DNA of 63,940 nucleotides, counting the filler, from Gemmatimonadota bacterium (GTDB taxonomy: Bacteria; 4572-55; J002), in assembly GCA_003697105.1 (NCBI GenBank). It is 4 parts of 4 records of this genome, joined end to end, with 100 filler letters (N's around TTAATTAATTAA, not from the genome) between each part and the next. Parts side by side here need not be neighbours in the genome. Positions count along the whole stretch, not along the records: positions 39,360 to 59,780 come from RFFQ01000147.1; 3 more parts are not named here. One strand, written 5' to 3'. This document shows positions 24,562 to 50,886 of this stretch, piece after piece (the stretch's first letter is position 1; the number at the start of each line of letters is the position of its first letter). A program made the position numbers and the translations under genes. The notes under the pieces were generated by a model that was not told where the DNA came from, searched no databases, and saw nothing but the letters and a program-made list of their open reading frames with translations.

Positions 24562-24668
24562 GTCCGAATTTTATCGAGTTTAAATTTTGGAATTTAGAGT
24601 TATTTTCAATAGGGATTAGGTTTCTCACCGGTGGTACGGGTTTCAAGCCGGGGCAATTTCTAAACACA

Positions 24669-26387: not shown

Positions 26388-26429
26388 AATGATTTTATAT
26401 CCTCATCACGTTTATAAGAAAATCAAGAG

Positions 26430-26472
26430 AAAGAAACCCGTTCTCCCTCTCCAACCGAAAACGGGTTTCTTT
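26430..26472 (-). terminator. Intercistronic hairpin / terminator after the Ig-repeat gene
   Basis: 13-bp stem AAAGAAACCCGTT/AACGGGTTTCTTT with a 17-nt loop and T-rich tail on the minus strand. Confidence 0.55.
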
Positions 26473-26491
26473 AATTCCGTCTGACGCTTTT

Positions 26492-29686: not shown

Positions 29687-29762
29687 AATAGGTCACCCTC
29701 CTAACGGTATGGGATGGATGTAGGAAATCTCATTTATGCTCATGATGAAGCATCAATGGGGA

Positions 29763-31244
29763 TTATTCACCGGTAGATGCGTCTTGCTCCAGCATGATAT
29801 TTTTTTTCTCTTGCAGATAGTCCATGTGCTGTTGAGTCGCTTTTTCGCGCATCTCATCTCGCATATCAATCATCGGGAAGTCCTCATGGACATCACCGTT
29901 GACCAGTTTACCATTTTTCAGGATATGGGGGGTGATTTCAATCAGCAGTTCGGTGCGTTTGGTTTCCATGCTGTTATACCGGAACCAATTACCGATCAAG
30001 GGCAAGTTACTGAAAAATGGGAGGCGATATTCCGTATTCACGTCTTCAGAACCGAGGAAACCGCCGAGCACGACACGTTCACCATCTTTAACGATGACCG
30101 TAGTGGAGGCTTTACGCACTTTTGTACGAGGCAATTCGCCGTTGATAAGTTCCACCACAGAGCTTACTTCGGGGGTGACTTCCAAGGTGATGAAGCCATC
30201 GGCATTGACAATGGGCTTGATTTCAAGTTTCGTACCCACGTTTTCCCGTTCAATAGAAAAGCCGGTACCTCCACCGACCACAACGTTGGAGACGGTATAT
30301 GGAATCGTTTCCCCAATGTGCAAGTTTGCTTGGCGGTTGTTCATGGTGGTCAAACGGGTATCCGCCACGATTTCCGCCACGTTGTTTTTGAGCATAAAAT
30401 CGAGGGTGACATCAAAGGCGGTCAATTGCCGGCTGAAATGGCCGATATTGCTCAAGCCATCCAGAGGTTGGTAGCCTTGTTGGTCTGGCAGGATTTCAAA
30501 GTCACCCAATTCTTCAAACCGGCTTTCGCCAGCTTGGCCCAGCGTATAAATCCCTTCAGCCTCGGAATAACCGTTTTCAACCAAGATCGTGGTTAATTTG
30601 GTCAATTTTGACCAATCAATACCCATTTCGCGGGCATAGTTGGTCTCAACTTCAATAATACGGGTTTCCAACATAATTTGGAAGGAGGGTTTATCGATCT
30701 GATCGATAATATGGCGAATTTCTTCAATGGTTTTGGGATTGGTATTGATCAGCAACGCATTCCCCATCGGCAGGGTTTGCACATTATCGGTCAGGTCTGC
30801 CAGCAGGTCTTTGACTTCTTCCACATTGGCGTGCTGCAGTTCGATCAAATAGGGTTTTAAGCCGACTTCATCATCTTTGGTCAGGGTCTCGGTGGAGGCA
30901 ATCAGAAAGGAATTTCCGACAATTTCATAGGATAGACCGGAGGCGCGCACCACCAGATTGATGGCTTGTTCAATCGGGACATCTTGCAGGCGGATGGATA
31001 ATTTTTGAGCTTTATCGACTCCGGGACCCGTGACGATATTAAAACCGCTCTGTTCTGCCAGAATGGCTAAGACGCTGGGCAGGTAGGCTTCATCGGCATC
31101 CAGAGAGACCGGTGTATTTAAGTTAGCGGCAGAAGCGCCGGCGCCGCCCTGTGCAAAACCCACGAGCGGATAGCAAAGCATGAAAGAAACCAATAGAAAC
31201 GGAAGAGGTTTTATCAACAGACGAAAATTAGCAATTGGGTTCAT
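29763..31244 (-). CDS. pilQ: Secretin PilQ
   Basis: N0/N domains, QIMLETRIIEV, NVGTKLEIKP, VKDGERVVLGG, LPFFSNLPLIGNWF, ELLIEITPHI. Confidence 0.92.
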   Translation of the reverse strand: MNPIANFRLLIKPLPFLLVSFMLCYPLVGFAQGGAGASAANLNTPVSLDADEAYLPSVLAILAEQSGFNIVTGPGVDKAQKLSIRLQDVPIEQAINLVVRASGLSYEIVGNSFLIASTETLTKDDEVGLKPYLIELQHANVEEVKDLLADLTDNVQTLPMGNALLINTNPKTIEEIRHIIDQIDKPSFQIMLETRIIEVETNYAREMGIDWSKLTKLTTILVENGYSEAEGIYTLGQAGESRFEELGDFEILPDQQGYQPLDGLSNIGHFSRQLTAFDVTLDFMLKNNVAEIVADTRLTTMNNRQANLHIGETIPYTVSNVVVGGGTGFSIERENVGTKLEIKPIVNADGFITLEVTPEVSSVVELINGELPRTKVRKASTTVIVKDGERVVLGGFLGSEDVNTEYRLPFFSNLPLIGNWFRYNSMETKRTELLIEITPHILKNGKLVNGDVHEDFPMIDMRDEMREKATQQHMDYLQEKKNIMLEQDASTGE

Positions 31245-31250
31245 TATGGC

Positions 31251-31808
31251 TTACCTTTCTTCGGTACGGGATTGTTGAACGGCACGTCGGGAAAGTAGCA
31301 CAAGTTCTCGACCGTTGGGTTGTTGCAGGATTACCCGCTCCCGCTCGATCCGGAGAACTTTGCGACCTTCGATCTCGTCACCTTCTTTGACAATATAACT
31401 ATTACCTTTATAGCGAATCACAGCCGTGCGCTCCGAGGAGGCAACAACCGTCGCATTGAGGGAGAACCCCTCCACCGCATTCAGTTGTTCTAAGCGCTTG
31501 CGTTCCTCTTCTCGCCGCCGTTCTTCTTCTTTTTTTGCCAGCGCCGGCGGGATGAACGTAATTACACGGGTCATCTGCAACGGATTGACTTGGGTCTTAA
31601 ACTCTAAGGAATAGCGCTCGACCAAATCCGCTTCCAACTGCGAGACGATCCGTTCCAAGTCACTATCCAACCGTTGTGTTGCGGTGTCGGGTTCAATATG
31701 GCGAATTTGTTGGGCATTGCGGTGCAAATGGTACACGGAATACAACGCCAGCATTAGCAATAATATCGCAAACAACGTAAAAATGTCTTTGGCTAGGTCT
31801 GACTTCAT
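31251..31808 (-). CDS. PilP/GspC-like alignment protein
   Basis: Position between pilO and pilQ; N-terminal anchor; C-terminal AVI...YIVKEGDEIEG.KVLRIERERVIL. Confidence 0.65.
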   Translation of the reverse strand: MKSDLAKDIFTLFAILLLMLALYSVYHLHRNAQQIRHIEPDTATQRLDSDLERIVSQLEADLVERYSLEFKTQVNPLQMTRVITFIPPALAKKEEERRREEERKRLEQLNAVEGFSLNATVVASSERTAVIRYKGNSYIVKEGDEIEGRKVLRIERERVILQQPNGRELVLLSRRAVQQSRTEER

Positions 31809-32389
31809 AAGCTCTGATCTTCTTTCACAAGGGTCAAAGTACTGATGGTCAATTTCATTTCGTAGGTATCCAATTCGCGGTCTTTGCGGGGGGAGATAAA
31901 ATCATAAGGGCTGTTTAACACATCAAATTTCTGGATGTTTGTCAGCCGTTCGGAACGTTCTAGCTCCGCCACAAAGTTTCCGAATTGCTTGTAATTACAG
32001 AGAATGTGAAGATCATGGGTGGTGCGGTAAAAGCGGTCGCTGGCAGTTTGTCGGGTGGATTGGTTTGGTTCTACCGCAATCAAGGTAATGTTGTACTTAT
32101 CCAGTACCGGCGTGAGGTATTTGAGGAAGTCTAGCGAGCGTTCCTTTACCAGCGAATCGCTCTGAGACATTGCCAAATTTCCTTCAATTAGCCGCGCCAC
32201 TTCTTTCACTTCACGATTCAAAATCCGGGCACCGATCAGTTGTTCCTCTTGTTTTTGGATTTCGTAATCCACATTACGAATTTCCCGTAGTTTGGCGTTG
32301 TACAGAACAAACGTGTAATAGAGAATCGCGGCGCCAATCAACACAAAAATCAAGGTAAAAACGGTGTATTTAGACATAAGCTTACTCAA
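31805..32389 (-). CDS. pilO: PilO
   Basis: TM plus coiled coil; NYKQFGNFVAELERSERL motif; position in pilMNOPQ; start may be ATG 32377. Confidence 0.8.
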   Translation of the reverse strand: MSKLMSKYTVFTLIFVLIGAAILYYTFVLYNAKLREIRNVDYEIQKQEEQLIGARILNREVKEVARLIEGNLAMSQSDSLVKERSLDFLKYLTPVLDKYNITLIAVEPNQSTRQTASDRFYRTTHDLHILCNYKQFGNFVAELERSERLTNIQKFDVLNSPYDFISPRKDRELDTYEMKLTISTLTLVKEDQSL

Positions 32390-33029
32390 CTACCATCATT
32401 TGAGGCTCGGAAGAAGAGGCACTTGCCTCCGGTGAACGTACTTTACACACCAATCCAAATTCGAGCACACGCTGTTCGCCGACATTGATGTGCTTGGAGA
32501 AATCAAAATCCACATCCAGAAAATCCGCCGACAAGGTGGAATCGGCCCGGATCGAGTCAATCAATGCCAAGACAAAATCCAACTCCTTTTGGTCTTTGCG
32601 GACTTCAGTCAAGCCTTCCAATTGGAAGAGGTTGCGGTCTTGATCGTAAGACATTTTGGTATAAACCGCTTTCGCCGGAATCACCTCTGCGAGTGCCGCC
32701 AATTTTGGCGTCCAGAGCAATCGATTTTGCTCGAGTGCGGCGAGGACGCGGACATCTTCTTCAGATACATAGCGCGGACTTTTTTGTAACTGGCTCAGTT
32801 CCGCGTTGATATCCGCCAGTCGTTGCCGGCGTTCTGCCAATTTAGCGTTGATGTCCTCGTGATAGCGGTAGCCCCAGGCGAGAATCGCGCCCAACACCAT
32901 AAAATACAGTAGCATCCAGACCCAGAAGAATCGCTTCCGGCGAGCTTCTTCCCGGCTTTCTAGTGCGACTTTGTTGAGATTGATTCTAAAACCAATCGTG
33001 GTTGAAAGTTCCGTCATGGTTGCATCCAC
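32382..33029 (-). CDS. pilN: PilN
   Basis: INL motif before the TM helix, coiled coil, W...L..L...IP; follows pilM; start may be ATG 33017. Confidence 0.8.
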   Translation of the reverse strand: MDATMTELSTTIGFRINLNKVALESREEARRKRFFWVWMLLYFMVLGAILAWGYRYHEDINAKLAERRQRLADINAELSQLQKSPRYVSEEDVRVLAALEQNRLLWTPKLAALAEVIPAKAVYTKMSYDQDRNLFQLEGLTEVRKDQKELDFVLALIDSIRADSTLSADFLDVDFDFSKHINVGEQRVLEFGLVCKVRSPEASASSSEPQMMVVE

Positions 33030-33119
33030 ATTAAAAGTTCAAAAAATGAGGTTCCCCGGTGGTATGCGAAGACACACACCTCCGACAGGTTTCGCACCCA
33101 CTGAGGAACCAAAACAGAC

Positions 33120-34211
33120 TTATTCGCCGAATCGCAGTGCTAACCCAACCGCTTGCGCGATTTGTGGTTCTTCACTGACACCCATGTTCCCCGGTAAGTT
33201 CATATATTCCAATGGGTTATAAACTGATACAGGTAAATGGAGTTGCCCCGAGAGAAACGCATCCATGCTGTGAATTTTCGCCGAACCGCCGGTCAGCAGC
33301 ACCCGGGAAAAATCATTGCGACCCGATTCCTTGAAGTAGTAGCGCAAGGAGCGCCGGACTTCGTCCACCAACATCTCTTGGGTCTGCTTTTCCGCCAAAC
33401 TAATTGACGGACGGCTCATTTTGACCGAGGTCACCGGGTCATTATCATCAATATCGGCTTGCGGGAAAATCCCTTTGTCATATTTGATCTGCTCACCGAC
33501 GCCAAAATCCACATCATACTCACGCATCAGATCATGGGTAAAGTGATTTCCACCGTAGGGAATATCGCGGGTAAAAAATAAGCCTTTACGGTGGTAAATC
33601 GCTAAGACAGACCGGGTCGCTCCGATATTTAGGATGACCACAATTTCATCATCATTGACGGCATTGAGCAGGACATAGGAATTGACCAGCGCCAAGCTAT
33701 CCACATCGATTACCGGAGCGGTCTCTTTGATACCGATTTGTTGCAATAACGCGGCATGTTTGGTGTATGCTTTGCGGGTCGTCACCACCAACAAGACATC
33801 AATTTTGCCTTGGTCTTTATCTTCACCTAAAATTTGGTAATCAAGGATGATTTCACTACTACCAACGGGCAGGTGTTTGCGGGCTTCAAAACGCAGGGAG
33901 GATTCAAGTTCGTCTTCCGTGAGTGAAACCGTTTTAATTTGCTTGACACTAACGGCTTCACCCCCAATGGAGGTGTAAATTTGTTTCAAGCGTTTGGGAT
34001 CAATTTTGAGTCGCTTGAACACATCGGAGAGCGCCGAAACGTATTCGACGGTATTATCTTTTTCGGCATCATACTCTTTGCCTTCGGGGAAAATTTCTTG
34101 GATAGCATAATTGACCAACTTAACTTGATCATGTTTGCGTTCCAACTGTACGAGTTTGATACTGTGGGTTCCAATATCCAAACCAACGGCAGTTTTTTTA
34201 TTTCCAAGCAT
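33120..34211 (-). CDS. pilM: PilM (actin-like)
   Basis: VGLDIGTHSIKLVQL, LNIGA, GGNHFT, LLTGGSA, YNPL, AVGLALR. Confidence 0.93.
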   Translation of the reverse strand: MLGNKKTAVGLDIGTHSIKLVQLERKHDQVKLVNYAIQEIFPEGKEYDAEKDNTVEYVSALSDVFKRLKIDPKRLKQIYTSIGGEAVSVKQIKTVSLTEDELESSLRFEARKHLPVGSSEIILDYQILGEDKDQGKIDVLLVVTTRKAYTKHAALLQQIGIKETAPVIDVDSLALVNSYVLLNAVNDDEIVVILNIGATRSVLAIYHRKGLFFTRDIPYGGNHFTHDLMREYDVDFGVGEQIKYDKGIFPQADIDDNDPVTSVKMSRPSISLAEKQTQEMLVDEVRRSLRYYFKESGRNDFSRVLLTGGSAKIHSMDAFLSGQLHLPVSVYNPLEYMNLPGNMGVSEEPQIAQAVGLALRFGE

Positions 34212-34305
34212 TCGACTATTGTTGTGCCTTTCTTTCGTAAGCTCAAAGGGTTAGGTGAGAGAAAACCGGAACCACCGGACGGGCAGTTCCGGTCAATCGA
34301 TACGA

Positions 34306-35925
34306 TTAATCATTCACACCGGTCATTTCCCGCCAATTATAGCGAACATAAGATTTACCACCATTTGCGTATTCAACTTCGATATAATCCGGTGGGGATT
34401 GGGTATAAAAGCGTTCATCATAGTGATAATCTTTATCGTGAAACCCGCCATGATTGCCGAAATTATTACAACCGGCATCCGAATAGGTACGGTGGACATA
34501 CCCGCGATACCGTTGCGCAATGGCACCCCAAAATGTTAAGACGGTCCCCTCATGGGGTAGCTCATGCATCCACGGTTCATTAGATGACAACCGGGCGGCG
34601 TCCGTTTCTAACCCACACATATGTTGTACCGTAAACGCACCCCGGTCTTCTGGGTAAACACCATCACCCAGTGCCGCAATGGCGGCATTCAGTACCAAGC
34701 CCCACTCCTGACCCCGAAACCGAAACTGACGATTTGCCGCACTATTGGCAATGATCACCCGCTTTTCAGAGATAATCCCCAGATAATTTTTACTATTTTC
34801 CGGGGGTTTACCCAACATCCCACGTATAAAATTGAGGGTATCGGAATCAGCATAGTAAAGATGATCGCTGATGTAAATATTACCACTGGCACCCACACTT
34901 AAATTGCCTTTAAATACCCCTTTTAGTTCGACCACGCCATCAATAAACCAAGACCCTCCTTCGGGCCACTGGGGAATGCTAACACCGGTAAATAACGTAT
35001 CGACAATCCGGTCAGCATGAGGACCGCCCGGTTGTCCCGCCCAGTCCACATGGTAGGAGAGAGGATTCCCCGGTTGGCGAAAGCGGTGGCGAGTCACTTT
35101 TGCTCGCCCGCTCCGTTTAAACTCAATGCGTACGGCAACTTCTTCTTCTTCTTGTGTTTCAGGGTTCCACCAGTGGGTTGAGAAGCGACGAATCGCATTG
35201 TTTCGCACATTTTCCGCATTGTGGGGATACACAATTGGTGGGACACCAAGTTCATACCCGCCCAGAAAGACTTCTTCGGGGTCTTCAGGACCTCCGCCCA
35301 GCGGATGCGTCCATGTGATATCTTCACTGGCACTTTGCACAAAATCCCGGAAAATCGGTGTTCGGGGTTGGGGCGAACTGCGAGTTGCCAGTGCCAGTTG
35401 GTCGTTGGTATATACTTTACCGGTAATATCATCACCATACCGGAAAGTGACCAGATCAAAATTATCCGGCTCGCGTTCGCTATCCGTAAAGTAAAAGTAT
35501 TGAGCCAATGTCTCTTGGAGGTAATTGGCAATAGCGGTACGCGAGGTATTATCCGGTAATTTACGACCGCGATCATCTGCTAAAACGGCATAGGAGGAAA
35601 AGCTGGGCATGCCATTTTCATACGTGGGGGTCATTCCGATAAACCCAATCACTTCTTCACGCCGCCCATGCAAACTTTTGCGTGTCATTTTGTGTTCGGG
35701 GACTTTCCGGTGGGATAGATTACCGGAAGTTTCATTCATGACATCCTGAATGTTATTTGCCTGCTCCAACATGACTAACTGTTGCACCCGGTCGATCTCG
35801 ATATCGACAACGTGCATGTGATACGCCGCCATTGCCAGATATCCGGCACTAATAAGCCCACCAACCAGCAACAATGCCATAACCAACACAATGCTAAAAC
35901 CATGTTCCGATGGGACATTCCGCAT
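34306..35925 (-). CDS. Large PilX/GspK-like minor pilin
   Basis: G|FSIVLVM prepilin site lacking Glu5; strong SD AAGGAGGTGA before ATG 35925; C-terminal KDYHYDERF...PP. Confidence 0.75.
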   Translation of the reverse strand: MRNVPSEHGFSIVLVMALLLVGGLISAGYLAMAAYHMHVVDIEIDRVQQLVMLEQANNIQDVMNETSGNLSHRKVPEHKMTRKSLHGRREEVIGFIGMTPTYENGMPSFSSYAVLADDRGRKLPDNTSRTAIANYLQETLAQYFYFTDSEREPDNFDLVTFRYGDDITGKVYTNDQLALATRSSPQPRTPIFRDFVQSASEDITWTHPLGGGPEDPEEVFLGGYELGVPPIVYPHNAENVRNNAIRRFSTHWWNPETQEEEEVAVRIEFKRSGRAKVTRHRFRQPGNPLSYHVDWAGQPGGPHADRIVDTLFTGVSIPQWPEGGSWFIDGVVELKGVFKGNLSVGASGNIYISDHLYYADSDTLNFIRGMLGKPPENSKNYLGIISEKRVIIANSAANRQFRFRGQEWGLVLNAAIAALGDGVYPEDRGAFTVQHMCGLETDAARLSSNEPWMHELPHEGTVLTFWGAIAQRYRGYVHRTYSDAGCNNFGNHGGFHDKDYHYDERFYTQSPPDYIEVEYANGGKSYVRYNWREMTGVND

Positions 35926-35941
35926 GAAGCGGATCACCTCC

Positions 35942-36730
35942 TTAAAATGAGTTACCGTGTTCCGCGATAACTTGATGTGTCGTGTTTTGTAGATGAACTA
36001 ACTGCTCAAACTCTTGGATATCCAAAACGTCACCATTGCGGTCAGTCACTTGGATAGCATAGCGCATCAGCAGATAATTTCGGGGACTTTCACCGTGTTT
36101 TCTCTTAAAATCAAAGCCATTGGGGAGTTTTTCGAGCTGATTTCCGGGGATAAACTCACAGTTGATGACGGAAATATTGGAAGGTAATGCTTGCGGGATT
36201 AACCGGCGGGCTTGGTGTCGTTTTTCATCCTGAGCTAACTCTCGCCCTAAATCATCCTTCCAACCGGGATAGGTGATGTAAATCGCCCGTTGGGCTTTAT
36301 CGTTTCGCGAATCCCGGTCTCGATTGCTAATTTTACCCCATTTGATCTCCACTTGCCATTCCGAACCGGCTTTAATACGCCGGTCACGGGTGATTTCTGA
36401 GCCGTATAGGGTCAGTTTTGCGTTTTTCTTACCTTGATAACTTTCAATTTTATAGTCTTGCGCCGTATTGATCCCCTTGCGATAGGCTTCGTAGCCGCCT
36501 CGCCGGCTCGTGGAGGCAATACCATCCGCAATCCAGTTCATCATCAAGGAAAGATTCATCTGAAGATCAATGATGCCGGAGGTTTCGTCATAATCTGCTT
36601 CGGCAAAGTTGACCGTCTGCAACAAACTCCAAGAAACAACAGACATAATACTGATGATTGTTAAGACGGTTCCCACCTCATAAAGGGTCAACCCGCGTTG
36701 ATGTTTCAACCGCATAAAAGACATGGACAT
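35942..36730 (-). CDS. PilW-like minor pilin
   Basis: QRG|LTLYEV prepilin motif; SD AGGAGG before ATG 36730. Confidence 0.75.
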   Translation of the reverse strand: MSMSFMRLKHQRGLTLYEVGTVLTIISIMSVVSWSLLQTVNFAEADYDETSGIIDLQMNLSLMMNWIADGIASTSRRGGYEAYRKGINTAQDYKIESYQGKKNAKLTLYGSEITRDRRIKAGSEWQVEIKWGKISNRDRDSRNDKAQRAIYITYPGWKDDLGRELAQDEKRHQARRLIPQALPSNISVINCEFIPGNQLEKLPNGFDFKRKHGESPRNYLLMRYAIQVTDRNGDVLDIQEFEQLVHLQNTTHQVIAEHGNSF

Positions 36731-36740
36731 AAACCTCCTG

Positions 36741-37202
36741 CTAGTTTGCCCGAAACCAAACATCATTGGATAATCGAACCGCGTTATCTTCCGTTTTGCG
36801 GATACGACCATCACCGTTACTATCCCACCAAACGATCACATCGAGTTCCCGGCGGGCAACACTGGGACCGTATGTCGTTTCACTTTTCATATCCCCGACA
36901 ACCCACTCAACTTCAGCCGTAACTCGGGTGGAACCGTCACTGAAGACATCCAAGGGGTATTCATAGGAACGCCAATTTCGGACATTGTTCGGATTGGCTT
37001 TGACATATTCCGAGAGCATAATCAAGTCAGACCGTGCTTTCCGGAGCGCTTTTAGCCGTAATTCTTGTTGCTGGACGATCTCTTGCCCATACACAAACGC
37101 CAGATAAAAGGCAACCACACCAATCGTCATAATTAAAATCGCTGTTACCAACTCAATGAGGGTAAAGCCGCAAGATTGGCGCTGAAACAGACGAGATCGC
37201 AT
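36741..37202 (-). CDS. PilV-like minor pilin
   Basis: CG|FTLIELV prepilin motif; SD GGGAG before ATG 37202. Confidence 0.8.
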   Translation of the reverse strand: MRSRLFQRQSCGFTLIELVTAILIMTIGVVAFYLAFVYGQEIVQQQELRLKALRKARSDLIMLSEYVKANPNNVRNWRSYEYPLDVFSDGSTRVTAEVEWVVGDMKSETTYGPSVARRELDVIVWWDSNGDGRIRKTEDNAVRLSNDVWFRAN

Positions 37203-37227
37203 CGTAAAGTCTCCCGGAGTCCTCGGA

Positions 37228-38274
37228 TTAGCGCATGAACCATTCTGGGTCATCCGCTACTTTTGCCGCATCGGCTTTGTTAATCTTACCTTCCACAACC
37301 AAGCGACGCAGATCGTCATCCAGAGTCTGCATACCAACATGGCTACTGGATTGAATCACCGACGGAATTTCATAAATTTTATTTTCCCGGATTAGGTTCC
37401 GCACGGCCGGCGTGGCGATCATCACCTCTGCACCGACAACCCGCCCTTTACCATCTTTGGTGGGCAGCAATTTCTGGTTGATCACACCTTCCAGTGATTC
37501 CGACAACATGGATCGAATTTGCGGTTGTTGCTCACTGGGAAAGATATCGATAATCCGGTTGATCGTTTTAGGAGCACCACTGGTATGTACCGTGGAAAGC
37601 ACCAAGTGACCGGTTTCGGAGGCGGTCAAGGCCAATTGCACCGTTTCCCGGTCTCGCATTTCCCCTACGAGAATCACATCGGGGTCTTCACGCAACGCCG
37701 CCCGTAACGCATTGGCAAAGGAATGCGTTGTTGCCCCTAATTCCCGCTGATTGATTAGTGAATTTTTACTGCTGTGGAAAAACTCTACCGGGTCTTCGAT
37801 GGTGATGATATGGCATTGCCGGTTCTCATTGATATGATTGATCATTGTTGCGAGGGTGGTTGTTTTCCCACTTCCGGTGGGTCCGGTCAACAAGACTAAC
37901 CCGCGGTCTTTTAGAGCTAAGTCTCGCAAGACAAGCGGAATGCCGAGTTCTTCAAACCCTTTAATTTCCTCTGGGATCGTACGAAAAACCGCGCCAATCC
38001 CCAAAATCTGGTGAAACACATTGACCCGAAACCGGGCGACATTGGGCAAGGCATAGGAAAAGTCAATCTCAAAATCCCGTTCCAGTTTCTCCTTTTGATC
38101 CCCTTTCAGGATTTCGTAGATCATATCTTTTAATTTACCATTTTCCAAATTCACCGGCAGATTGAGCTTGCGCATGGTACCATTGATCCGCACCATTGGT
38201 GTGGATCCCGTACTCAAGTGCAAATCGGAGGCACCAGATTCTTTGGAAAAGGCTAAAAGCTCATCAATATGCAT
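37228..38274 (-). CDS. pilT: Retraction ATPase PilT
   Basis: ASDLHL, GPTGSGKTTT, LREDPD, TGHLVLSTVH, AVRNLIRE (AIRNLIRE motif), GMQTL. Confidence 0.96.
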   Translation of the reverse strand: MHIDELLAFSKESGASDLHLSTGSTPMVRINGTMRKLNLPVNLENGKLKDMIYEILKGDQKEKLERDFEIDFSYALPNVARFRVNVFHQILGIGAVFRTIPEEIKGFEELGIPLVLRDLALKDRGLVLLTGPTGSGKTTTLATMINHINENRQCHIITIEDPVEFFHSSKNSLINQRELGATTHSFANALRAALREDPDVILVGEMRDRETVQLALTASETGHLVLSTVHTSGAPKTINRIIDIFPSEQQPQIRSMLSESLEGVINQKLLPTKDGKGRVVGAEVMIATPAVRNLIRENKIYEIPSVIQSSSHVGMQTLDDDLRRLVVEGKINKADAAKVADDPEWFMR

Positions 38275-38298
38275 AATAACTACCCTTCAATCAAAGAG

Positions 38299-38733
38299 TT
38301 ACTGCTGTGTGTCATCGCCATGCCCATAACCGGAGAACTTCGCCGTTTCCACATCAAACCGGACGGTGCGACCCGCGCCACCGGGCATATTAGCGGTACT
38401 GGTAGCTTGAATCGACGTTAGATTATCCCCACCGCCGACGATGCTAAACTGCCAATTATCCAAAGTCGCTTGTTCGAGGGTTAACCCCGCATTCCGCAAA
38501 TCATTCAGGCTAGCCGTATAGGAGCCATAACGCTGATAATAAACTTGATTTGCCCGCCAAATTGCCGAAATAGCAGTTTCAGCTTCAGCCGCCCGCGCAC
38601 CTTCAACATATTGCAGATACAGGGGCACCGCAATCGCCGCCAAAATGGCTACAATAATCACCACAATCAAAATTTCGACCAGCGTAAAACCAGACCGCTG
38701 TTGCCGATTAAAGCTATTACAAATGTTGCTCAT
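38299..38733 (-). CDS. pilA: Type IVa major pilin candidate
   Basis: SG|FTLVEILIVVIIVAILAAIAVP; SD AAGGAG before ATG 38733; first gene of the cluster. Confidence 0.85.
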   Translation of the reverse strand: MSNICNSFNRQQRSGFTLVEILIVVIIVAILAAIAVPLYLQYVEGARAAEAETAISAIWRANQVYYQRYGSYTASLNDLRNAGLTLEQATLDNWQFSIVGGGDNLTSIQATSTANMPGGAGRTVRFDVETAKFSGYGHGDDTQQ

Positions 38734-38901
38734 GTGAGAATACTCCTTCAACAAAAATAGATTGGAATTGAAACGTTGGAAAAAAGATATAAAAAAAACC
38801 CACATCTCCTAAATAAAACCGGTTTATTTAGACGTTGGGTTTTCGGGAAATGGATTGCAGCAGTTGGGAAAAAGCAGTAGGGGAATCGCTAATGTGGAAA
38901 G

Positions 38902-42714: not shown

Positions 42715-43221
42715 ATGACACCAATGGGGATTTACATGATGGGATTACCGCTTCGATTGCACCTTCAACGCGGCTTTACCTTGATCGAAGTGGCGATGGC
42801 GGTGGTGATCATCGGGGTATTGCTCATCCCGCTGTTGACCCTGCTCGGTACAGATATTATCAATGATAGCAACGTCCGAGATGCTGGTGTGGCGTACGAA
42901 CTGGCGCAAGAAGAACTAGAATGGTTGCTGTATTCTAAAGTGCCGGCCAGTGTTTTGATGAAGTATTATATCCAGCAAAGCCAACGGGGAGACCCCAATG
43001 TTCAAGCAGAGGTGCGCAAACGTAAAACCCCCGATGGGACCAAACAAGACGTTCTGGACGTAAACGTTAAATATGAGATTGAATTTGCCGGTAAATCGTG
43101 GCAGATCCGACGGCATTTGATTATGGATCAGACGTATCTGACGGAAATCCACATCGCAGTATATGGACCATTGAACCAAGATAAACCGTTGGCACAATTG
43201 AGCACTTTAAAATATCAATAA
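42715..43221 (+). CDS. Prepilin-type N-terminal cleavage protein
   Basis: QRG|FTLIEV plus hydrophobic helix; start may be 42736/42739. Confidence 0.8.
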   Translation: MTPMGIYMMGLPLRLHLQRGFTLIEVAMAVVIIGVLLIPLLTLLGTDIINDSNVRDAGVAYELAQEELEWLLYSKVPASVLMKYYIQQSQRGDPNVQAEVRKRKTPDGTKQDVLDVNVKYEIEFAGKSWQIRRHLIMDQTYLTEIHIAVYGPLNQDKPLAQLSTLKYQ

Positions 43222-43225
43222 ATAC

Positions 43226-43843
43226 ATGACCCAATCGACCCGCACGGCCTTTTCACTGGTGGAAATGGTGGTGGTAATGGTTATTTTTAGTCTGGTATTG
43301 GGTGTGGTTTATACGGCGCTTCATTTTACCAGCGATACCACCCGCAAGAGAGGAATTCAAGGAGAGCTTGAGGATGCCGGGCACCACTTATTGGCAGAAT
43401 TGATCAATGAGATTGGCGGTGCTCTGGAGTTAATCAACCCGGATAAAACCCAAATACGTATTTTGGGAGCACATCACCAAGTGCTAGACTTCCGGTTTCA
43501 GGAGGGTAACGTTACCAAAAATGGAATTCCGCTCCACCCGCATGATGTTAAAATTACCCATTTTGAACTGACTTATTTCAGCTATGACGGACTGGATCGG
43601 AATCAGAATGGACAGGTCGATGTGTTTGATTTTATGGATGTTGGTAATGTTCAGGAACGGTTTTTGATGGTGCCGGATATTCGCTTATCGGAGGCAAGGC
43701 AACTGGAAGTTACCCCCGGTGATATTCGCCCGTCCGGCGCCCCTCCGGTTGCCATTCATTTTGTCCAAATTACGGTTACCCTCTCTAAGGATGGCATTGA
43801 GCGGGAATTGCGCTCTTCAACCGCCCTACGAAATCCTCATTAA
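43226..43843 (+). CDS. Prepilin-type protein (PilW/GspJ-like)
   Basis: RTA|FSLVEM (Ala at -1); C-terminal LRSSTALRN. Confidence 0.78.
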   Translation: MTQSTRTAFSLVEMVVVMVIFSLVLGVVYTALHFTSDTTRKRGIQGELEDAGHHLLAELINEIGGALELINPDKTQIRILGAHHQVLDFRFQEGNVTKNGIPLHPHDVKITHFELTYFSYDGLDRNQNGQVDVFDFMDVGNVQERFLMVPDIRLSEARQLEVTPGDIRPSGAPPVAIHFVQITVTLSKDGIERELRSSTALRNPH

Positions 43844-44358: not shown

Positions 44359-44395
44359 AAAAAACGCCTGATCCCGCACGGATCGGGCGTTTTTT
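44359..44395. terminator. Bidirectional intrinsic terminator
   Basis: AAAAAACGCCTGATCC-loop-GGATCGGGCGTTTTTT between convergent genes. Confidence 0.85.
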
Positions 44396-44435: not shown

Positions 44436-45527
44436 TTATCGTCCGGTGAAGGAATCCACGGGACGGTCCCGGTAATCCAACAGCATGTTGCCCACATGTT
44501 GTGAATCTTGTTCGATGTAGCGTTTCATCAGGTTTTCCTTCCAGAGAACCTGCTTGTGTGTTTCGGAATCAAACCCTTTCAATGCCGCTTCGTAGTGCCC
44601 GTGCGGGATGCCGTGATACTTTCCTCCGGAAATCTGGGCGATTTTAATCCCCAACTGCGTACCCCACCACAACTCACCGCCTTTATGTTCGCTAAATCGC
44701 CCATGTGCCGGATTGATCACAATAATGGGGATTTTGTTTTTGCGGAACAATTTTGCCTGCTGGATCGCCTTCTGATAAGCGGGTTCCTCAAATAAATTTT
44801 TGTATGTTGCGGTGAGCGGCTCCGGGTGACAATCACTGAGGAGAATCGCCACCGGATTGTAAAACGGTTGGCGTTGTCGCACCTGTTTGAAGACCTCCAA
44901 CGCTTTTTCCAATGCCTCTGCTAAAGGGGTATTTCCAGAGGGTGAGAGACGGGTTAAATTACCTAAAACCCTCTTTAAATTGCGAGAAGGATGGTTGATC
45001 ACATGGACGCTATTTTTTTGGATGGCAATGAGTCCCAGTGTATCCCGGTTCCGGTAGGCGTCGCGGTATAAAATGGAGATGATCCGTGCTGCCGGTTCCA
45101 GAAAATGATAGGTGGAGGCGCTCACATCTGCAATTAGGAGCATGGTTAGCGGAGCTTTGCCCAAACGTACCCACATTTGAAGATCGGAACGGATCAATTT
45201 AAGTGGCATCTGTCCCTGCTGGCGGATGAGTGCTGTGCGAACCGTCGGTAATACTGCAAAATTCTGGGCGGAAACGACCGTTGCCGGACGAAACCGGATC
45301 GGGCGACCCCGGCTCTCGCTGGTAAAGGTGGCGGCTCGTTTGCCCACTTTCGGTTGGGTGTGGGGCTTGTGAGAAGACGTTAATTTTAATTTCCAATCAT
45401 CAAATGCGCCTTTTAGCGCCTTGAAAATTTCCTGCGGTGAGATGAGTGGTACACTGAGTTCACGCTGTTTTTGCCGGCCAGATGCCGCGCGTGAATCCGA
45501 AAGCTTAAAATCCGGGGATGGTTCTAC
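44436..45527 (-). CDS. VWA-domain half of a ChlD-like chelatase subunit (-1 frame continuation)
   Basis: MIDAS DVSAS, DAYRNRD.L.LI, SGNTPLA, LLSD; frame stays open 60 codons upstream of GTG 45347 up to the A10 run; no RBS before that GTG. Confidence 0.8.
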   Translation of the reverse strand, partial: VEPSPDFKLSDSRAASGRQKQRELSVPLISPQEIFKALKGAFDDWKLKLTSSHKPHTQPKVGKRAATFTSESRGRPIRFRPATVVSAQNFAVLPTVRTALIRQQGQMPLKLIRSDLQMWVRLGKAPLTMLLIADVSASTYHFLEPAARIISILYRDAYRNRDTLGLIAIQKNSVHVINHPSRNLKRVLGNLTRLSPSGNTPLAEALEKALEVFKQVRQRQPFYNPVAILLSDCHPEPLTATYKNLFEEPAYQKAIQQAKLFRKNKIPIIVINPAHGRFSEHKGGELWWGTQLGIKIAQISGGKYHGIPHGHYEAALKGFDSETHKQVLWKENLMKRYIEQDSQHVGNMLLDYRDRPVDSFTGR

Positions 45528-45538
45528 TTTTTTTTTTC
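45524..45538 (-). promoter_or_regulatory. Candidate -1 ribosomal frameshift / transcriptional slippage site
   Basis: GAA AAA AAA AAG TAG: ten A's containing in-frame A_AAA_AAG directly before the stop. Confidence 0.7.
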
Positions 45539-46681
45539 GCCACCGGCAGTTGGTGACGCAAGATGATGTTTTGTTCCGGTTTTGCCGGTAGTTTGGTACG
45601 GTGGCAATGAGAACCGCTCCCCTTGTTTTTTGTGGGGAGCATGTTTCGCCAGTGCATTTTCAAGGGTCTTTTTAATCTCGGTGGGGGTTGCCGGGGCGTC
45701 AAAGCCACCATCACGGGTGCGATGCCCCAGAGCGAATTGGCAGGCAGTGAGCAGATCGGATTCCGTAACAAGGGGGTGGTCGTGATATGCGGCAAGGGTC
45801 AATGCCGTGCGGGTGATGATGATTTCCGGACGGTGTCCATCCACTTTAAGTTGAATGCACGTTGTGGCAATGGCTCGCAATTGATACTCTTCAATTTCAC
45901 ATTGGTGTAAGCAATGTTGTGCCTGAAGAATCCGGTCTCCTAATGCCTTTTCTTCGGCGTGGTAGTGATCGTGTAATTGCTGGGGATTCTGCCCCGAAAT
46001 CAGATTGCGCCGGATGATTTCCACCCGAGCAGACTCATCGGTAAGGGTTTTGAGGGTGACGGAAAGGGGTAGCCGGTCTAGCAACTGGGGACGGAGTTCA
46101 CCTTCTTCCGGATTCATGGTGCCCACTAAAATGAATCGGGCGGGATGGCTGATCGAAAATCCTTCCCGTTCAACGGTATTCCATCCCAAAGAGGCGGCGT
46201 CGAGAATATCGTCCGTGATATGGTCAGGTAACAGATTGATCTCATCAACGTATAAAAAATTGTGATTTGCTGTTGCCAATAAGCCGGGTTGGAATGCTTT
46301 TTGACCTTCGGAGAGCATTTTTTCCATATCTATCGCACCGATCAGGCGGTCTTCACTGATACTGAGGGGTAGCGGGATAACTTGCATTTTACGCGAGACG
46401 GTGGGTAATGGCTCGCCGGCAGATAGACGAGCTTGGCAATCCGCACACAAATATTCTTCTTGCGTTGCTAAACAGTTGTAGCGGCAACCGGAAACAATTT
46501 CCCGTTCGGGGAGAAGATGCGCAAGGGCATAAACTGCCGTACTTTTGCCGGTACCTTTGGGACCCCGAACCAGTAGCCCGCCAATCCGAGGGTTGATTGT
46601 GTTCAGAATGAGTGCCAGTTTAAGTTCATCCTGTCCGACAATCGCTGAAAATGGGATGGTATATTGTCTGCGGTATGCCAT
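45524..46681 (-). CDS. ChlI/BchI-like AAA+ chelatase subunit (0-frame product)
   Basis: PFSAIVGQ, GPKGTGKS, YVDEINLL, EREG.S..HPARF.LVGTMNPEEGELRPQLLDR; ATG 46681 lies downstream of the promoter. Confidence 0.92.
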   Translation of the reverse strand: MAYRRQYTIPFSAIVGQDELKLALILNTINPRIGGLLVRGPKGTGKSTAVYALAHLLPEREIVSGCRYNCLATQEEYLCADCQARLSAGEPLPTVSRKMQVIPLPLSISEDRLIGAIDMEKMLSEGQKAFQPGLLATANHNFLYVDEINLLPDHITDDILDAASLGWNTVEREGFSISHPARFILVGTMNPEEGELRPQLLDRLPLSVTLKTLTDESARVEIIRRNLISGQNPQQLHDHYHAEEKALGDRILQAQHCLHQCEIEEYQLRAIATTCIQLKVDGHRPEIIITRTALTLAAYHDHPLVTESDLLTACQFALGHRTRDGGFDAPATPTEIKKTLENALAKHAPHKKQGERFSLPPYQTTGKTGTKHHLASPTAGGEKKK

Positions 46682-46721: not shown

Positions 46722-46750
46722 AGTGTACCGGATATGGGTAAAACTGTCAA
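46722..46750 (-). promoter_or_regulatory. sigma70-type promoter of the chlI/D-like gene
   Basis: TTGACA-N17-TACACT; the ORF-track TTG start falls on the -35 box. Confidence 0.65.
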
Positions 46751-47472: not shown

Positions 47473-50400
47473 ATGCACATCACACCTTATAAATCCAAAC
47501 ATCAAATTCGATTTGTCACGGCGGCGGCATTATTTGATGGGCATGATGCCAGTATCAATATTATGCGCCGAATTTTACAATCATCTGGAGCCGAAGTCAT
47601 CCATTTAGGACATAATCAAGCCGCAGAAGTGGTGGTGGATGCCGCTATTCAGGAGGATGCGCAAGGGATTGCCGTTTCATCCTATCAAGGCGGGCACATG
47701 GAATTTTTTAAGTACATGTACGATCTGCTGCAAAAAAAAGGGGCGGGTCACATCCGTATTTACGGCGGCGGTGGCGGGGTGATCGTCCCCCGCGAGATTA
47801 AAGAACTACATGCGTACGGCATTGCTCGTATTTTTTCTCCTGAAGATGGGCGACGCATGGGCTTACAAGGTATGATCAATCTGATGCTAGAAGAATGTGA
47901 TTGGGTGATGAATCCGTGGGGGGATAAAAACCTACCGGGTTTAGAAAATGGGCAGAAAGCCGGCATATTAGCACAAGAACTCAAACAGCTCAATCCCACG
48001 GATGTGGTCAAAATTGCTCAATTTATCACCTTTGCTGAAAATGATACCGAAGAGACCTTTCATCGAGCATTGGGCTTGATCAACGGTGAGATGAAGACGA
48101 TACCCGTGCTCGGGATTACCGGTACCGGGGGTGCCGGAAAGTCCAGTTTAACCGATGAGTTAGTCCGCCGATTTCTCAATGATTTTGAAGATAAAACGGT
48201 TGCGGTATTGTCCGTAGATCCCTCCAAACGGAAGACGGGGGGTGCGCTCTTGGGTGATCGCATCCGTATGAACGCGATTCGCAATCCGCGCTGTTACATG
48301 CGTAGCCTTGCTACTCGCGATTCTAAGTCGGAACTCAGTCACGCCATTCGGGAAGCCATCGCGGTGACCAAAATGGCAGGATTTGATCTGATCATTGTCG
48401 AAACGAGCGGTATCGGGCAGGGAGATGCGGAAATCATCGATATTGCGGATATTTCGGTTTATGCTATGACCCCTGAGTACGGCGCGGCGTCCCAACTGGA
48501 AAAGATCGACATGATCGATTTTGCCGATTTTATCGCCCTCAACAAATTTGACCGCCGCGGTGCCGAAGATGCCTTGCGCGATGTGCGGAAACAGTACCAA
48601 CGCAGCCGGCAATTGTTTGATAAAAATGTGGAGGAGATGCCGGTCTATGGCACAATTTCGAGCCATTTTAATGACCCCGGGGTCAATCAATTGTATCTCC
48701 GGTTGATCGATCACCTCAATGGAAAATTTGACCTTCAGTGGCAGAGCCAGATCACGCCGGAAATGTGCCGCCGCACGGAAAAAGACGTGATTATCCCCCC
48801 AGACCGTACCCGCTACCTCTCCGAAATTGCCCATACCGTGCGAAATTACAAAAAATGGGCACAGGCTCAAGCTGAAATTGCCTCAGGTCTGTACCAATTG
48901 TATGGCGCGTTGGTGATGTTAGGTGATGAACCGCCCTGCCGTCTCGGTTCGTATCCAAAAGATGCCACCAGCGATGACCCGGTGATTCAGGCATTACGGG
49001 ACAAATGGCAGGAAAATTTGGATCAATTGGATAAACATTGCCACAAATTATTAGCCGGATTACCCGAATTTTACCAACAGTATCAAGGTGATGAATTTGT
49101 GTATCAAGTACGGGGTAAAGAATTTCGGGTAGCGCTGGTGACAGAATCGCTCTCGCATCTAAAAATCCCCAAAGTTTGTTTACCCCAGTACCGGGATTGG
49201 GGCGATGTTCTAGCATGGCGGTTGTTGGAAAATGTGCCGGGAGAATTTCCGTACACGGCGGGTGTGTTTCCCTTAAAGCGAACCGGAGAAGACCCGACCC
49301 GCATGTTTGCCGGTGAAGGTCCACCAGAACGTACCAACAAACGGTTTCACTACGTCAGTCGCGATTATACCGCTAAACGACTCTCCACCGCATTTGATTC
49401 CGTCACACTCTACGGTGAAGACCCGCACGAACGCCCCGATATTTACGGTAAGATTGGCGAAGGGGGGGTTTCCATCGCCACATTAGACGATATGAAAAAA
49501 TTATATGCCGGATTTGATCTCGTCTCGCCGCATAATTCTGTCTCAATGACGATCAACGGTCCCGCTCCCACGATCCTCGCCTTTTTTATGAACACGGCAA
49601 TTGACCAGTTGTGTACAAAATGGTTGGTCGATAATGCCAAATTACCGGCAGATGCTCTCTGGTTGGAATCCTCCATTAATGTCGATACCGGTGAGCCGTT
49701 CCGGGTACTGGCGGATGCGTGGAAGTATGTGCCGGATGAGGTCTATCAGGAGTTGAAAGCATGTGCCTTGCAAAATGTCCGGGGTACGGTGCAAGCGGAT
49801 ATTTTGAAGGAAGACCAAGCGCAAAATACCTGCATTTTTTCGACAGAATTTGCCTTAAAGGCGATGGGGGATGTGCAACAGTATTTTATCGATCAAAAAG
49901 TGCGGAACTTTTACAGCGTGAGTATTTCCGGGTATCATATTGCAGAGGCAGGCGCCAACCCGATCTCGCAGTTGGCATTTACGCTTGCAAATGGCTTCAC
50001 CTACGTGGAGTATTACCTCTCCCGCGGGATGGATATTGATGATTTTGCCCCGAATTTGTCCTACTTTTTTAGTAATGGACTTGACCCCGAATATTCTGTG
50101 ATTGGACGGGTTGCCCGGCGCATTTGGGCGACTGCCATCAAGAACAAATACGGGGGGAATGAACGCAGTCAAAAGTTGAAATATCACATCCAAACCTCCG
50201 GACGCAGTCTCCACGCGATGGAGATCGATTTTAATGATATTCGCACAACGTTACAAGCATTGATCGCGATCTATGACAATTGTAACTCGCTCCATACCAA
50301 CGCTTATGATGAGGCAATTACTACTCCAACGGAAGAGTCGGTGCGGCGTGCATTGGCAATTCAGATGATCATTAATCGGGAGTTTGGCTTAGCCAAAAAT

Positions 50401-50886
50401 GAAAACCCCAATCAGGGGGCATTTATCATTGAAGAATTGACCGAACTCGTGGAAGAGGCGGTTTTAAGTGAGTTTGAACGCATCTCGGACCGGGGAGGTG
50501 TCCTTGGTGCCATGGAAACCCAATATCAACGGGGTAAAATTCAGGAAGAATCGCTTTATTATGAACATCTTAAACACAGTGGAGCATTACCGATTGTCGG
50601 TGTCAATATGTTTTTGAACCCAACAGCGGATGATGTGGAAAAGGCAGATTCCATCGCACTTGCCCGTTCCTCCCAAGCAGAAAAGGATGCTCAAATCCGT
50701 AACTTGCGGGCATTTCAGGAACGGCACAAACAAGAAGCCCCTGCCGCTCTCCGGCGATTACAACAAGTGGCTCTCTCTCATGGCAATATTTTTGAAGAAC
50801 TGATGGAGACCGTTAAATACGCCAGTTTGGGACAGATAACCCACGCCCTGTATCAGGTCGGCGGTGAATATCGCCGGAATATGTAA
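47473..50886 (+). CDS. icmF: Fused isobutyryl-CoA mutase / GTPase IcmF
   Basis: B12-binding DGHDAS; MeaB GTPase [12 protein letters not shown] and NKFD; mutase RMFAGEG (Phe specificity residue), [20 protein letters not shown]; ends GGEYRRNM. Confidence 0.96.

Follow-up and report, generated by a model that had tools for sequence, protein, structure and literature searches.

Does this locus hold two genes, one encoding a ChlI-like AAA+ ATPase and the next a protein with a VWA domain, or does it hold a single gene whose two halves lie in different reading frames and are joined by a shift from one frame to the other? The locus was found in a window of 63,940 nucleotides (the whole stretch of DNA that was analysed), for which an earlier note had proposed a recoding locus that joins the ChlI-like AAA+ half to the VWA half at a run of ten adenines (A10). 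That claim is supported by three lines of evidence, because the two halves match one and the same NCBIfam model (TIGR02442), a continuous relative (P0138) aligns across the junction, and an A-run is conserved at the frame break. We consider it highly probable that the locus is a single monocistronic gene of the published frameshifted chlD (fs-chlD) family, making a short and a long product by a -1 shift at the A10.

Locus anatomy and support for the A10 run

The gene is read from the minus strand of the window, and the coordinates of its features are collected in Table 1. The 0-frame ORF begins at an ATG that agrees with the consensus N-terminus in the alignment of its homologues, and its translation ends in GEKKK. 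The minus strand reads ...GGT GGC GAA AAA AAA AAG TAG at this end, just as the earlier note had given it, with the reported A10 and its in-frame A_AAA_AAG heptamer both in place and with the 0-frame stop TAG (45526-45524) directly abutting the heptamer. Frame translation shows the -1 frame to be open from 44 codons ahead of the slip site, and the claim that it continues without stops also holds, as it reads VEPSPDFKLSDSRAASGRQK... and then meets no stop until the TAA at 44438-44436. Counted from the GTA at 45527, the -1 part adds 363 codons to the 385 of the 0 frame, which gives the product lengths of 385 and 748 aa that had been predicted (385 + 363 = 748). The terminator-like hairpin 3' of the TAA is common to this gene and a convergent STAS gene, the two genes standing tail-to-tail.

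Table 1. Coordinates of the features of the locus, counted along the window.
Feature	Position	Strand	Basis or remark
Promoter-like site TTGACA, 17 nt, TACACT	46722..46750	-	10/12 matches, a consensus match only, the region having 5 such sites against 3.9 expected from shuffles; about 40 nt 5' of the ATG
0-frame ORF, ChlI/BchI-like AAA+ ATPase (I-like product)	45524..46681	-	385 aa plus TAG; starts at ATG 46681
Four-cysteine insertion (C66, C70, C79, C82) in the AAA+ module	46436..46486	-	Coordinates computed from ATG 46681
A10 run (mRNA sense), slippery site	45528..45537	-	Sequence; run count in the window; two contigs
In-phase A_AAA_AAG heptamer (X_XXY_YYZ)	45527..45533	-	Equals the A_AAA_AAR site given in excerpts of PMC5009743
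Frame overlap, -1 frame already open	45527..45659	-	Frame translation
-1 extension, linker and BchD-like VWA domain	44436..45527	-	363 codons plus TAA
VWA_2 domain, residues 129-232 of the -1 part	44832..45143	-	Pfam PF13519, 5.4e-8
GTG used by the ORF track as VWA start	45345..45347	-	ORF listing
Terminator-like hairpin and T-run 3' of the TAA	44365..44384	-	Consensus match only

The A10 is the one A/T run of at least 10 in all 63,940 bases, for which an iid expectation would be 0.14; A/T runs of at least 9 number 2 in the window and those of at least 8 number 10. Logan contigs of two sequencing runs of one study cover the full 2,246 nt with 0 gaps, so that both read A10. The contig from run X1 is 22,456 nt long with a depth of 24.7, and that from run X2 is 7,123 nt long with a depth of 17.8 and has a single C>T at 44604. 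The match in a third run, X3, spans just 153 nt and falls short of the A10 site. What the first two runs supply is assembled contigs rather than raw reads, and the window may itself come from both samples; the A10 therefore stands without independent confirmation.

Homology of the two halves

The two halves cover consecutive stretches of a single NCBIfam model, TIGR02442 ('putative cobaltochelatase'). The N half matches positions 2-343 of its 641 positions (7e-127, 424.5 bits), and positions 367-616 are covered by the -1 half (5.2e-29, 101.2 bits); either half, when scored singly, lies below the model's curated cut-off of 779.45 bits. The N half further matches the NCBIfam model TIGR02030 BchI-ChlI (6.8e-113), the Pfam domains AAA_lid_2, AAA_5 and Mg_chelatase, and the PDB entries of ChlI (6l8d, 5.4e-96) and BchI (1g8p, 1.3e-81). 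Its translation contains the stretches GPKGTGKST and YVDEINLL, which we take to be the Walker A and Walker B motifs, respectively, and the four cysteines of its insertion are invariant in 35/35 sequences of alignment A1. The -1 half matches the NCBIfam model TIGR02031 BchD-ChlD (6.6e-20), and its VWA part matches the integrin-I domain of BchD (2x31_A, 1.1e-8) in an alignment that includes the query stretch 'advsas'. Residues 134-138 of the -1 part form a D-x-S-x-S metal-site motif, presumably the MIDAS.

Conservation of the A-run and the frame break

A conserved poly-A and frame break among orthologues had been proposed as a check on the recoding claim, and both are found among the homologues and the related loci. 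At the protein level, the KK[KNRT] motif occurs within the last 10 residues of 81 of the 120 nearest homologues, a set that counts the window's own protein, and of 76 of the 84 whose length is 360-430 aa; among control windows the figure is 34 of 4,299 (0.8%). The stop follows at most 3 residues after the motif in 78 of those 81 homologues, and the site is conserved although the linker around it varies. The closest protein relatives (P0002-P0012) have 59-70% identity, the metagenome loci examined as DNA have at most 54% identity among the matches listed, and of the named relatives the nearest are MAGs of Latescibacterota and Zixibacteria, the host itself being an uncultured hot-spring bacterium.

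Among the 158 related loci listed, the VWA half lies in the -1 frame in 16, and 49 are continuous. An A7-A11 run stands inside the frame overlap in 15 of the 16 listed loci with the -1 arrangement, G+C-rich contexts included. In one further locus, L079, the run is an A9 and the VWA half is in the +1 frame; in another, L010, whose assembly is of megabase scale, a comparable place is taken by an in-frame A11. Where a relative has its A8-A11 run in frame, a stop is reached soon after the run in either of the other two frames (at most 21 codons on), and a reverse logic may apply there, with slippage yielding the short I-like product.

The range of states among these relatives also bears on a different explanation, namely that the split arose by a recent frameshift mutation and the gene is decaying, or that replication slippage toggles the DNA itself between a split (A10) and a fused (A11 or A8) form. 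A/T runs also slip in replication, according to excerpts of Antonov et al. 2013 (PMC3711429); the related genes span A7 to A11, with both split and in-frame states; and the +1 position of the VWA half behind the A9 of L079 is consistent with a switch of this kind. However, both halves of the gene remain whole, their 385 and 363 codons being free of any further stop, and what the relatives commonly show is a split whose stop comes 0-3 codons behind the run, a pattern that random decay fits poorly. As for switching, neither of the two contigs carries a length variant, although contigs hide minority variants of run length. We regard decay or switching at the DNA level as very unlikely.

Continuity across the junction

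The continuous relative P0138 (744 aa) aligns on both sides of the frame break, having 64% identity to the N half over 359 residues and 51% to the -1 half over 362 residues, with the latter alignment starting at residue 1 (VEPS vs IEPS). L010 aligns to the -1 half from residue 8 and L079 from residue 20, and 42 of 101 tblastn matches begin at or before residue 61 of the -1 half, which is the position of the GTG at 45347. P0138, the closest continuous relative, has no A-run at its junction, and a near relative thus manages with a plainly fused gene.

Two separate genes would be present if the VWA protein were begun at GTG 45347, or were made by re-initiation or coupling after the TAG. The ORF track does show a 303-aa ORF from this GTG, many public annotations split the halves, with lengths near 380 aa, and excerpts of Antonov et al. 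2013 (PMC3711429) describe evidence of downstream initiation beside frameshifting in some of the clusters tested. The earlier note had likewise given GTG 45347 as the start of the VWA ORF while pointing out that it had no RBS; the GTG is indeed the first ATG, GTG or TTG of the -1 frame, and the 20 nt preceding it hold no GGAGG-like stretch. Nevertheless, the GTG lies 177 nt past the TAG, the -1 frame between the A-run and the GTG offers no ATG, GTG or TTG, the GTG is preceded by no Shine-Dalgarno-like stretch, and the 60 codons 5' of the GTG align to continuous relatives. Within these relatives the GTG itself pairs with a valine, the V of VGKRA, and we read it as more likely an internal valine codon than the VWA start. 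Coupling, moreover, needs no conserved A-run exactly at the frame break. We give the two-gene explanation even less credence than decay or switching.

Least likely of all is a homopolymer miscall that conceals a true A11 (or A8), and with it a plain continuous chlD-type ORF of 748 aa. In its favour are the proneness of an A10 to error, the continuous relatives (49 of the 158 loci listed, plus P0138) and the in-frame A11 of L010. Against it, the two separately assembled contigs are both gap-free at their depths of 24.7 and 17.8, with one differing by its SNP, and the same A-run break recurs in 15 loci listed and in most of the 120 homologues, from many sources. L010 itself invites caution here: the proteins of the P0011 cluster, which are near-identical to the L010 product upstream of its A11, are fragmentary (101-393 aa) and come from megabase-scale contigs, a pattern that leads us to distrust assemblies of the L010 type more than that of the window.

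Proposed expression and mechanism of slippage

If the locus is a single fs-chlD gene, standard decoding would halt at the TAG right after GAA AAA AAA AAG and give the 385-aa ChlI-like AAA+ ATPase, and a fraction of expression events would move into the -1 frame at the A10. The shift could come about by tandem ribosomal slippage on A_AAA_AAG, or by RNA polymerase slippage that produces A11 (or A8) transcripts, and either route would lead to a 748-aa ChlD-like protein made of the same AAA+ module, a linker and the VWA domain. If ChlI/ChlD and CobS/CobT are a guide, the two proteins so made would bind one another in a two-tiered ATPase motor, whose I:D ratio would be fixed by the slippage rate. 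Ribosomal -1 slippage and an A11 transcript would both yield the junction ...GEKKK-VEPSPDFK, and an A8 transcript alone would lack one of its lysines.

The weak 3' hairpin that had been noticed is real and has only 5 base pairs, and no significant RNA structure was found downstream when stretches of 67, 161 and 75 nt were compared with shuffles (z -0.15, -0.80 and -0.45, respectively). Because of this lack of significant 3' structure, the mechanism had rightly been left open, and for an A10 without a 3' stimulator we judge ribosomal frameshifting and transcriptional slippage to be about evenly probable. Excerpts from the literature describe a downstream stimulatory RNA structure as usual, though not universal, in the fs-chlD family.

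When the sites of 19 relatives were folded alike, long hairpins 7 nt after the run were seen only in L067 (A8, z -3.5) and L070 (A7, z -1.7), such that 3' structure is absent at runs of A9 or longer and strong hairpins stand at two of the three A7/A8 sites. All three of these sites (L070, L067 and L153), when parsed by eye, are in phase, for which the chance is about 15%. The phase of the A-run was considered as a discriminator between ribosomal and transcriptional slippage and was rejected, as any run of at least 9 holds an in-phase heptamer. The upstream GGTGG was rejected as a Shine-Dalgarno-like stimulator, as it is too close (3 nt) and is unconserved in the contexts of the relatives shown.

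The large subunit, the gene neighbourhood and the possible client

No ChlH/BchH/CobN large subunit (Pfam PF02514) was found among the 47 ORFs of the 64-kb window, and none was found in 10 genomes of relatives (0/10), whose completeness is unstated and for which a control search was positive in 5 of 14 known genomes. With no CobN/ChlH nearby or in the relatives' genomes, a cobalt- or magnesium-chelatase role is therefore unsupported for this lineage. The locus looks like the published orphan type of fs-chlD, which lacks CobN/ChlH and is of unknown function.

A Pfam search of 56 flanking ORFs at 16 related loci found no partner that recurs beyond pairs of close loci. TPR proteins adjoin L010 and L019. 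Neither of the window's own neighbours, an IcmF-like mutase and the STAS protein, is matched by tblastn in any of the 158 related loci listed.

A more specific reading, which we offer tentatively and think rather improbable as a whole, is that the locus encodes an orphan AAA+/VWA machine, bearing the four-cysteine insertion, that is not a tetrapyrrole chelatase and acts on an unknown client, with slippage of RNA polymerase on the A10 as the main determinant of the ratio of its products. The absence of CobN/ChlH from the 10 genomes and the pattern of hairpins, with none at A9 or longer, may speak for it, and orphan status has been raised earlier in print (excerpts of PMC9227772). If RNA polymerase slippage does set the ratio, the I:D ratio would depend on the length of the run, and possibly on temperature.

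For annotation, the single-gene explanation favoured here would mean one recoded gene with two products, rather than a 'ChlI' and a start-less 'VWA protein'. The locus would also make a clean test case, both for the role of an I/D motor without a ChlH/CobN partner and for the behaviour of long A-runs at transcription versus translation, because the run is long, no RNA structure accompanies it, and no large subunit is found in the 64 kb or in the genomes of the 10 relatives.

Comparison with known systems

The AAA+ half is near ChlI/BchI and the VWA half is like that of BchD, which places the locus beside BchI/BchD and ChlI/ChlD. A two-tiered ring architecture is described for the motors of Mg-chelatase and of the CobS/CobT cobaltochelatase in excerpts of a preprint (bioRxiv 10.64898/2026.10.09.757910). 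In contrast to the present locus, BchI/BchD, ChlI/ChlD and CobS/CobT each take two genes to encode and have a ChlH/BchH/CobN subunit as partner, and the AAA+ module of the window differs from theirs in having the four-cysteine insertion.

In E. coli dnaX, a 3' hairpin and, upstream, a Shine-Dalgarno-like element promote the shift, which gives the shorter product, whereas here it is the longer product that would arise from the shift, and no stimulator was seen. The likeness lies in the A_AAA_AAG heptamer, correctly identified beforehand as the dnaX slippery site, and in two products with a common AAA+ N-terminal part (tau and gamma in E. coli; excerpts of PMC3711429). The dnaX gene of Thermus thermophilus makes its two products from an A9 run via RNA polymerase slippage (excerpts of PMC3711429). 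It belongs to a different gene family, and the window locus is known from DNA alone; both, however, have a long A-run in a thermophile's gene, and an A10 without RNA structure fits the Thermus mode.

The closest likeness in design is to the fs-chlD family, earlier reports of which the note had rightly mentioned (PMC3711429, PMC5009743 and PMC9227772, each in excerpts). Shared features are a ChlI-like AAA+ ORF, a VWA half in the -1 frame, an A_AAA_AAR or poly-A site in the overlap and, as predicted here, an AAA+ module common to the short and long products. In E. coli reporters, the Mg-chelatase cluster of frameshifted genes gave 63, 40 and 10% frameshifting for A11, A9 and A7 cassettes, respectively (excerpts of PMC3711429), and the A_AAA_AAR site of the chlD family is described as being under purifying selection (excerpts of Atkins et al. 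2016, PMC5009743). Excerpts of Kuznetsov et al. 2022 (PMC9227772) report fs-chlD in genomes without a large subunit, its function there unknown, and the window locus resembles the published 'stage 1' type in having neither a large subunit gene nor a known function. It differs from the family in that it has no significant 3' RNA structure, its 0-frame stop abuts the heptamer and its host, from a hot spring, is an uncultured bacterium. The main experimental paper on the family is reportedly Antonov 2020 (Mol Biol Evol). The frameshift itself is no news, as the phenomenon is already known; what the locus adds is a hot-spring member, and a solid new example, to a published and experimentally tested recoding family.

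Anatomy of the gene and identity of its two halves

The gene studied is a member of the published family of frameshifted chlD genes (fs-chlD), with its ChlI-like and VWA halves meeting at an A10 run. In mRNA sense the ChlI-like ORF ends ...GGT GGC GAA AAA AAA AAG TAG, the 0-frame TAG abuts the A_AAA_AAG heptamer, and the phase of the heptamer suits tandem -1 slippage. The -1 frame is already open at 45659, 44 codons 5' of the slip site, and its first ATG, GTG or TTG in the ORF listing is GTG 45347, 5' of which a search for a Shine-Dalgarno-like stretch found none. Reading the minus strand directly thus bears out the earlier note, which had described an A10 with in-frame A_AAA_AAG before TAG, a -1 frame free of stops into a VWA ORF whose GTG lacks a ribosome-binding site, and products of 385 and 748 aa (the 385-aa ORF plus the -1 codons). 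The A10 is the sole A/T homopolymer of at least 10 bases across the 63,940-base window, for which an iid composition expects 0.14. The second-longest A/T run (9 bases, 19831-19839) lies within a minus-strand YfiR/HmsC-like (DUF4154) ORF.

Features of the chlD-type gene and its surroundings (window positions)
Feature	Position	Strand	Description	Basis
ChlI-like 0-frame ORF	ATG 46681 to TAG 45526-45524	minus	385 aa, C-terminus GEKKK	
A10 run	45537-45528	minus, mRNA sense		sequence reading
In-phase A_AAA_AAG heptamer	45533-45527	minus		sequence reading
-1 half	GTA 45527 to TAA 44438-44436	minus	363 codons, begins VEPSPDFKLSDSRAASGRQK...	frame reading
Promoter-like site	46750-46722		upstream of chlD-type gene	consensus match only
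Terminator-like hairpin and T-run	44384-44370 plus T-run		downstream of chlD-type gene	consensus match only
IcmF-like mutase, divergent neighbour	47473-50886	plus	1,137-aa fused B12-binding / MeaB GTPase / methylmalonyl-CoA-mutase	

The assignment of the halves as ChlI-like AAA+ and VWA was upheld by profile and structure matches. The N half matches Pfam AAA_lid_2, AAA_5 and Mg_chelatase, TIGR02030 BchI-ChlI (6.8e-113) and the solved ChlI/BchI structures 6l8d, 8osf and 1g8p (5e-96 to 1e-81). The -1 half matches Pfam VWA_2 and, at 1.1e-8, the integrin-I domain of BchD (2x31_A); its residues 134-138 read D-x-S-x-S. Both fall consecutively on TIGR02442 "putative cobaltochelatase" (641 positions; N half at 2-343, -1 half at 367-616), and their separate scores of 424.5 and 101.2 bits are each below the curated cut-off of 779.45. 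Within the AAA+ module, C66, C70, C79 and C82 (C-x3-C...C-x2-C; 46436-46486, minus strand) are invariant in 35/35 sequences of an alignment of homologues.

Conservation of the site among relatives

Among the 120 proteins most similar to the N half (49-70% identity; the window's own is counted, and most are about 380 aa), 81 carry KK[KNRT] in the last 10 residues, and in 78 of these 81 the stop follows within three residues. The motif lies near the C-terminus in 76/84 homologues of 360-430 aa and in 5/34 of those shorter than 360 aa, plain ChlI-like proteins in which the linker is missing; as a control, just 34 of 4,299 10-residue windows taken elsewhere in these proteins contain it.

At the DNA level, 158 related loci were compared among the matches listed, 78 in species-representative genomes and 80 on metagenome contigs. 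The ORF is continuous in 49, the VWA half lies in the -1 frame in 16, in the +1 frame in seven and in the same frame behind a stop in four, and 82 have no adjacent VWA match at E <= 1e-5. An A7-A11 run lies within the frame overlap of 15 of the 16 -1 loci listed, several in G+C-rich surroundings; the other, L136, has its VWA match 855 nt distant and resembles a pair of separate chlI and chlD genes. Inspection by eye added five loci of the same -1 kind, L067, L069, L107, L113 and L153, which the E-value filter had left among those with no adjacent match. The A-run at the frame break is conserved among relatives. Decay of the gene, or length switching at replication, would be in keeping with run lengths that vary among relatives, and assembled contigs could not reveal switching; neither half is damaged, however, and being split is the common state, so we consider it very unlikely.

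In continuous relatives the linker retains an A8-A11 run in frame (L010:7081-7091, L076:7060-7067, L109:4321-4329, L129:1533-1541), with both alternative frames stopping within a few codons, at most 21. Slippage there would yield a truncated I-like product, a dnaX-like logic that reverses that of the window's site. The homologue P0011 is near-identical to the product of L010 upstream of its A11 run, and the 35-member 90% cluster of P0011 (101-393 aa in those listed, many from megabase-scale contigs) has the look of a gene broken up by homopolymer errors, which calls for caution over the in-frame A11 of L010. At L079 (Zixibacteria-like, 5100-5160), an A9 run precedes a +1-frame VWA half 46% identical to the window's -1 half; decoding would require loss of one A or gain of two, and the arrangement fits transcriptional slippage or is a length error.

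Homology across the junction and the reality of the A10

Judged by homology, coding runs across the junction. The continuous 744-aa relative P0138 is 64% identical to the N half over 359 residues and 51% identical to the -1 half over 362, aligning from residue 1 of the latter; for L010 (a Latescibacterota MAG) the alignment starts at residue 8, and for L079 at residue 20. By tblastn with the -1 half, 42 of the 101 matches listed begin at or before residue 61, the GTG position, and GTG 45347 falls opposite the valine that continuous proteins carry in an internal VGKRA stretch. Since these sixty conserved codons upstream of the GTG hold no start codon, independent initiation of the VWA half is highly improbable.

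Logan contigs from two hot-spring metagenome runs cover all 2,246 bases with zero gaps: one of 22,456 nt (depth 24.7) and one of 7,123 nt (depth 17.8), the latter with a single difference (C>T at 44604). These are contigs rather than raw reads, from one study, in which both samples may be the window's source and minority length variants are invisible, and they speak against a one-off assembly slip. With A10 in both and the break recurring family-wide, a homopolymer miscall is scarcely credible.

Transcription unit and neighbourhood

The promoter-like site and terminator-like hairpin flanking the gene suggest a monocistronic unit that meets a STAS gene tail to tail and points away from the IcmF-like mutase. 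A G+C-rich hairpin at 44360-44395, bordered by A-runs to one side and T-runs to the other, sits between the two convergent genes and looks like a bidirectional terminator. A B12-dependent enzyme adjoining a "cobaltochelatase-like" gene is suggestive, and the pairing recurs in 0/158 related loci listed, where none of the window's neighbour genes recurs; the flanks of 16 related loci show no recurrent partner. The window also carries a large cluster of type IV pilus / type II secretion-like genes (23308-38805, minus, and 42715-43843, plus) with T2SSF, T2SSE, secretin, PilM, pilin-like N_methyl proteins and a 1,064-aa Big_1 protein, and two further prepilin-like genes directly upstream of the STAS gene.

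Known family and predicted function

Homology across the junction, the conserved A-run and the consecutive matches to TIGR02442 support the recoding locus proposed in the earlier note, and its statement that such genes had been reported is correct: Kuznetsov et al. [quoted passage not shown] In its working the locus would resemble the I/D motor that class I chelatases use. No CobN/ChlH homologue (the large subunit) was found among 47 window ORFs, and a PF02514 search of genomes (completeness not stated) behind 10 related loci, nine split at an A-run and one continuous, gave no match, the same search being positive in 5/14 control genomes. As far as the window and these genomes go, the locus thus lacks the large subunit that defines a chelatase. 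It fits the published orphan type: in the same paper, "stage 1" organisms have fs-chlD but lack chlH/cobN as well as both pathways, with function stated to be unknown, and the window's ORFs likewise hold no large subunit.

Candidate mechanisms of slippage

Folding downstream of the A10 found no stimulatory structure (z -0.15 over 67 nt, -0.80 over 161 nt, -0.45 over 75 nt). When 20 sites, the window's included, were folded identically, just two had a long hairpin starting 7 nt after the run, and both runs are short: the A8 of L067 (-31.9 kcal/mol, z -3.5) and the A7 of L070 (-31.5 kcal/mol, z -1.7). L107 and L028 reach z <= -1.6 with weaker folds, the remaining sites range from -1.2 to +1.9, and A9-A11 sites, the window's among them, are mostly without structure. 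These 20 sites hint at a possible trade-off between run length and RNA stimulator, short runs relying on a hairpin and long runs on their own length, which would fit RNA polymerase slippage. Ribosomal frameshifting and transcriptional slippage are about equally probable at the A10, and both yield an identical junction peptide. Atkins et al. 2016 (PMC5009743) describe an A_AAA_AAR site on which purifying selection acts. In the E. coli reporters of Antonov et al. (PMC3711429), cassettes with A11, A9 and A7 shifted at 63, 40 and 10%; the same paper describes RNA polymerase slippage at an A9 run in Thermus dnaX, and slippage that relies on run length in fs-chlD relatives would be of that kind.
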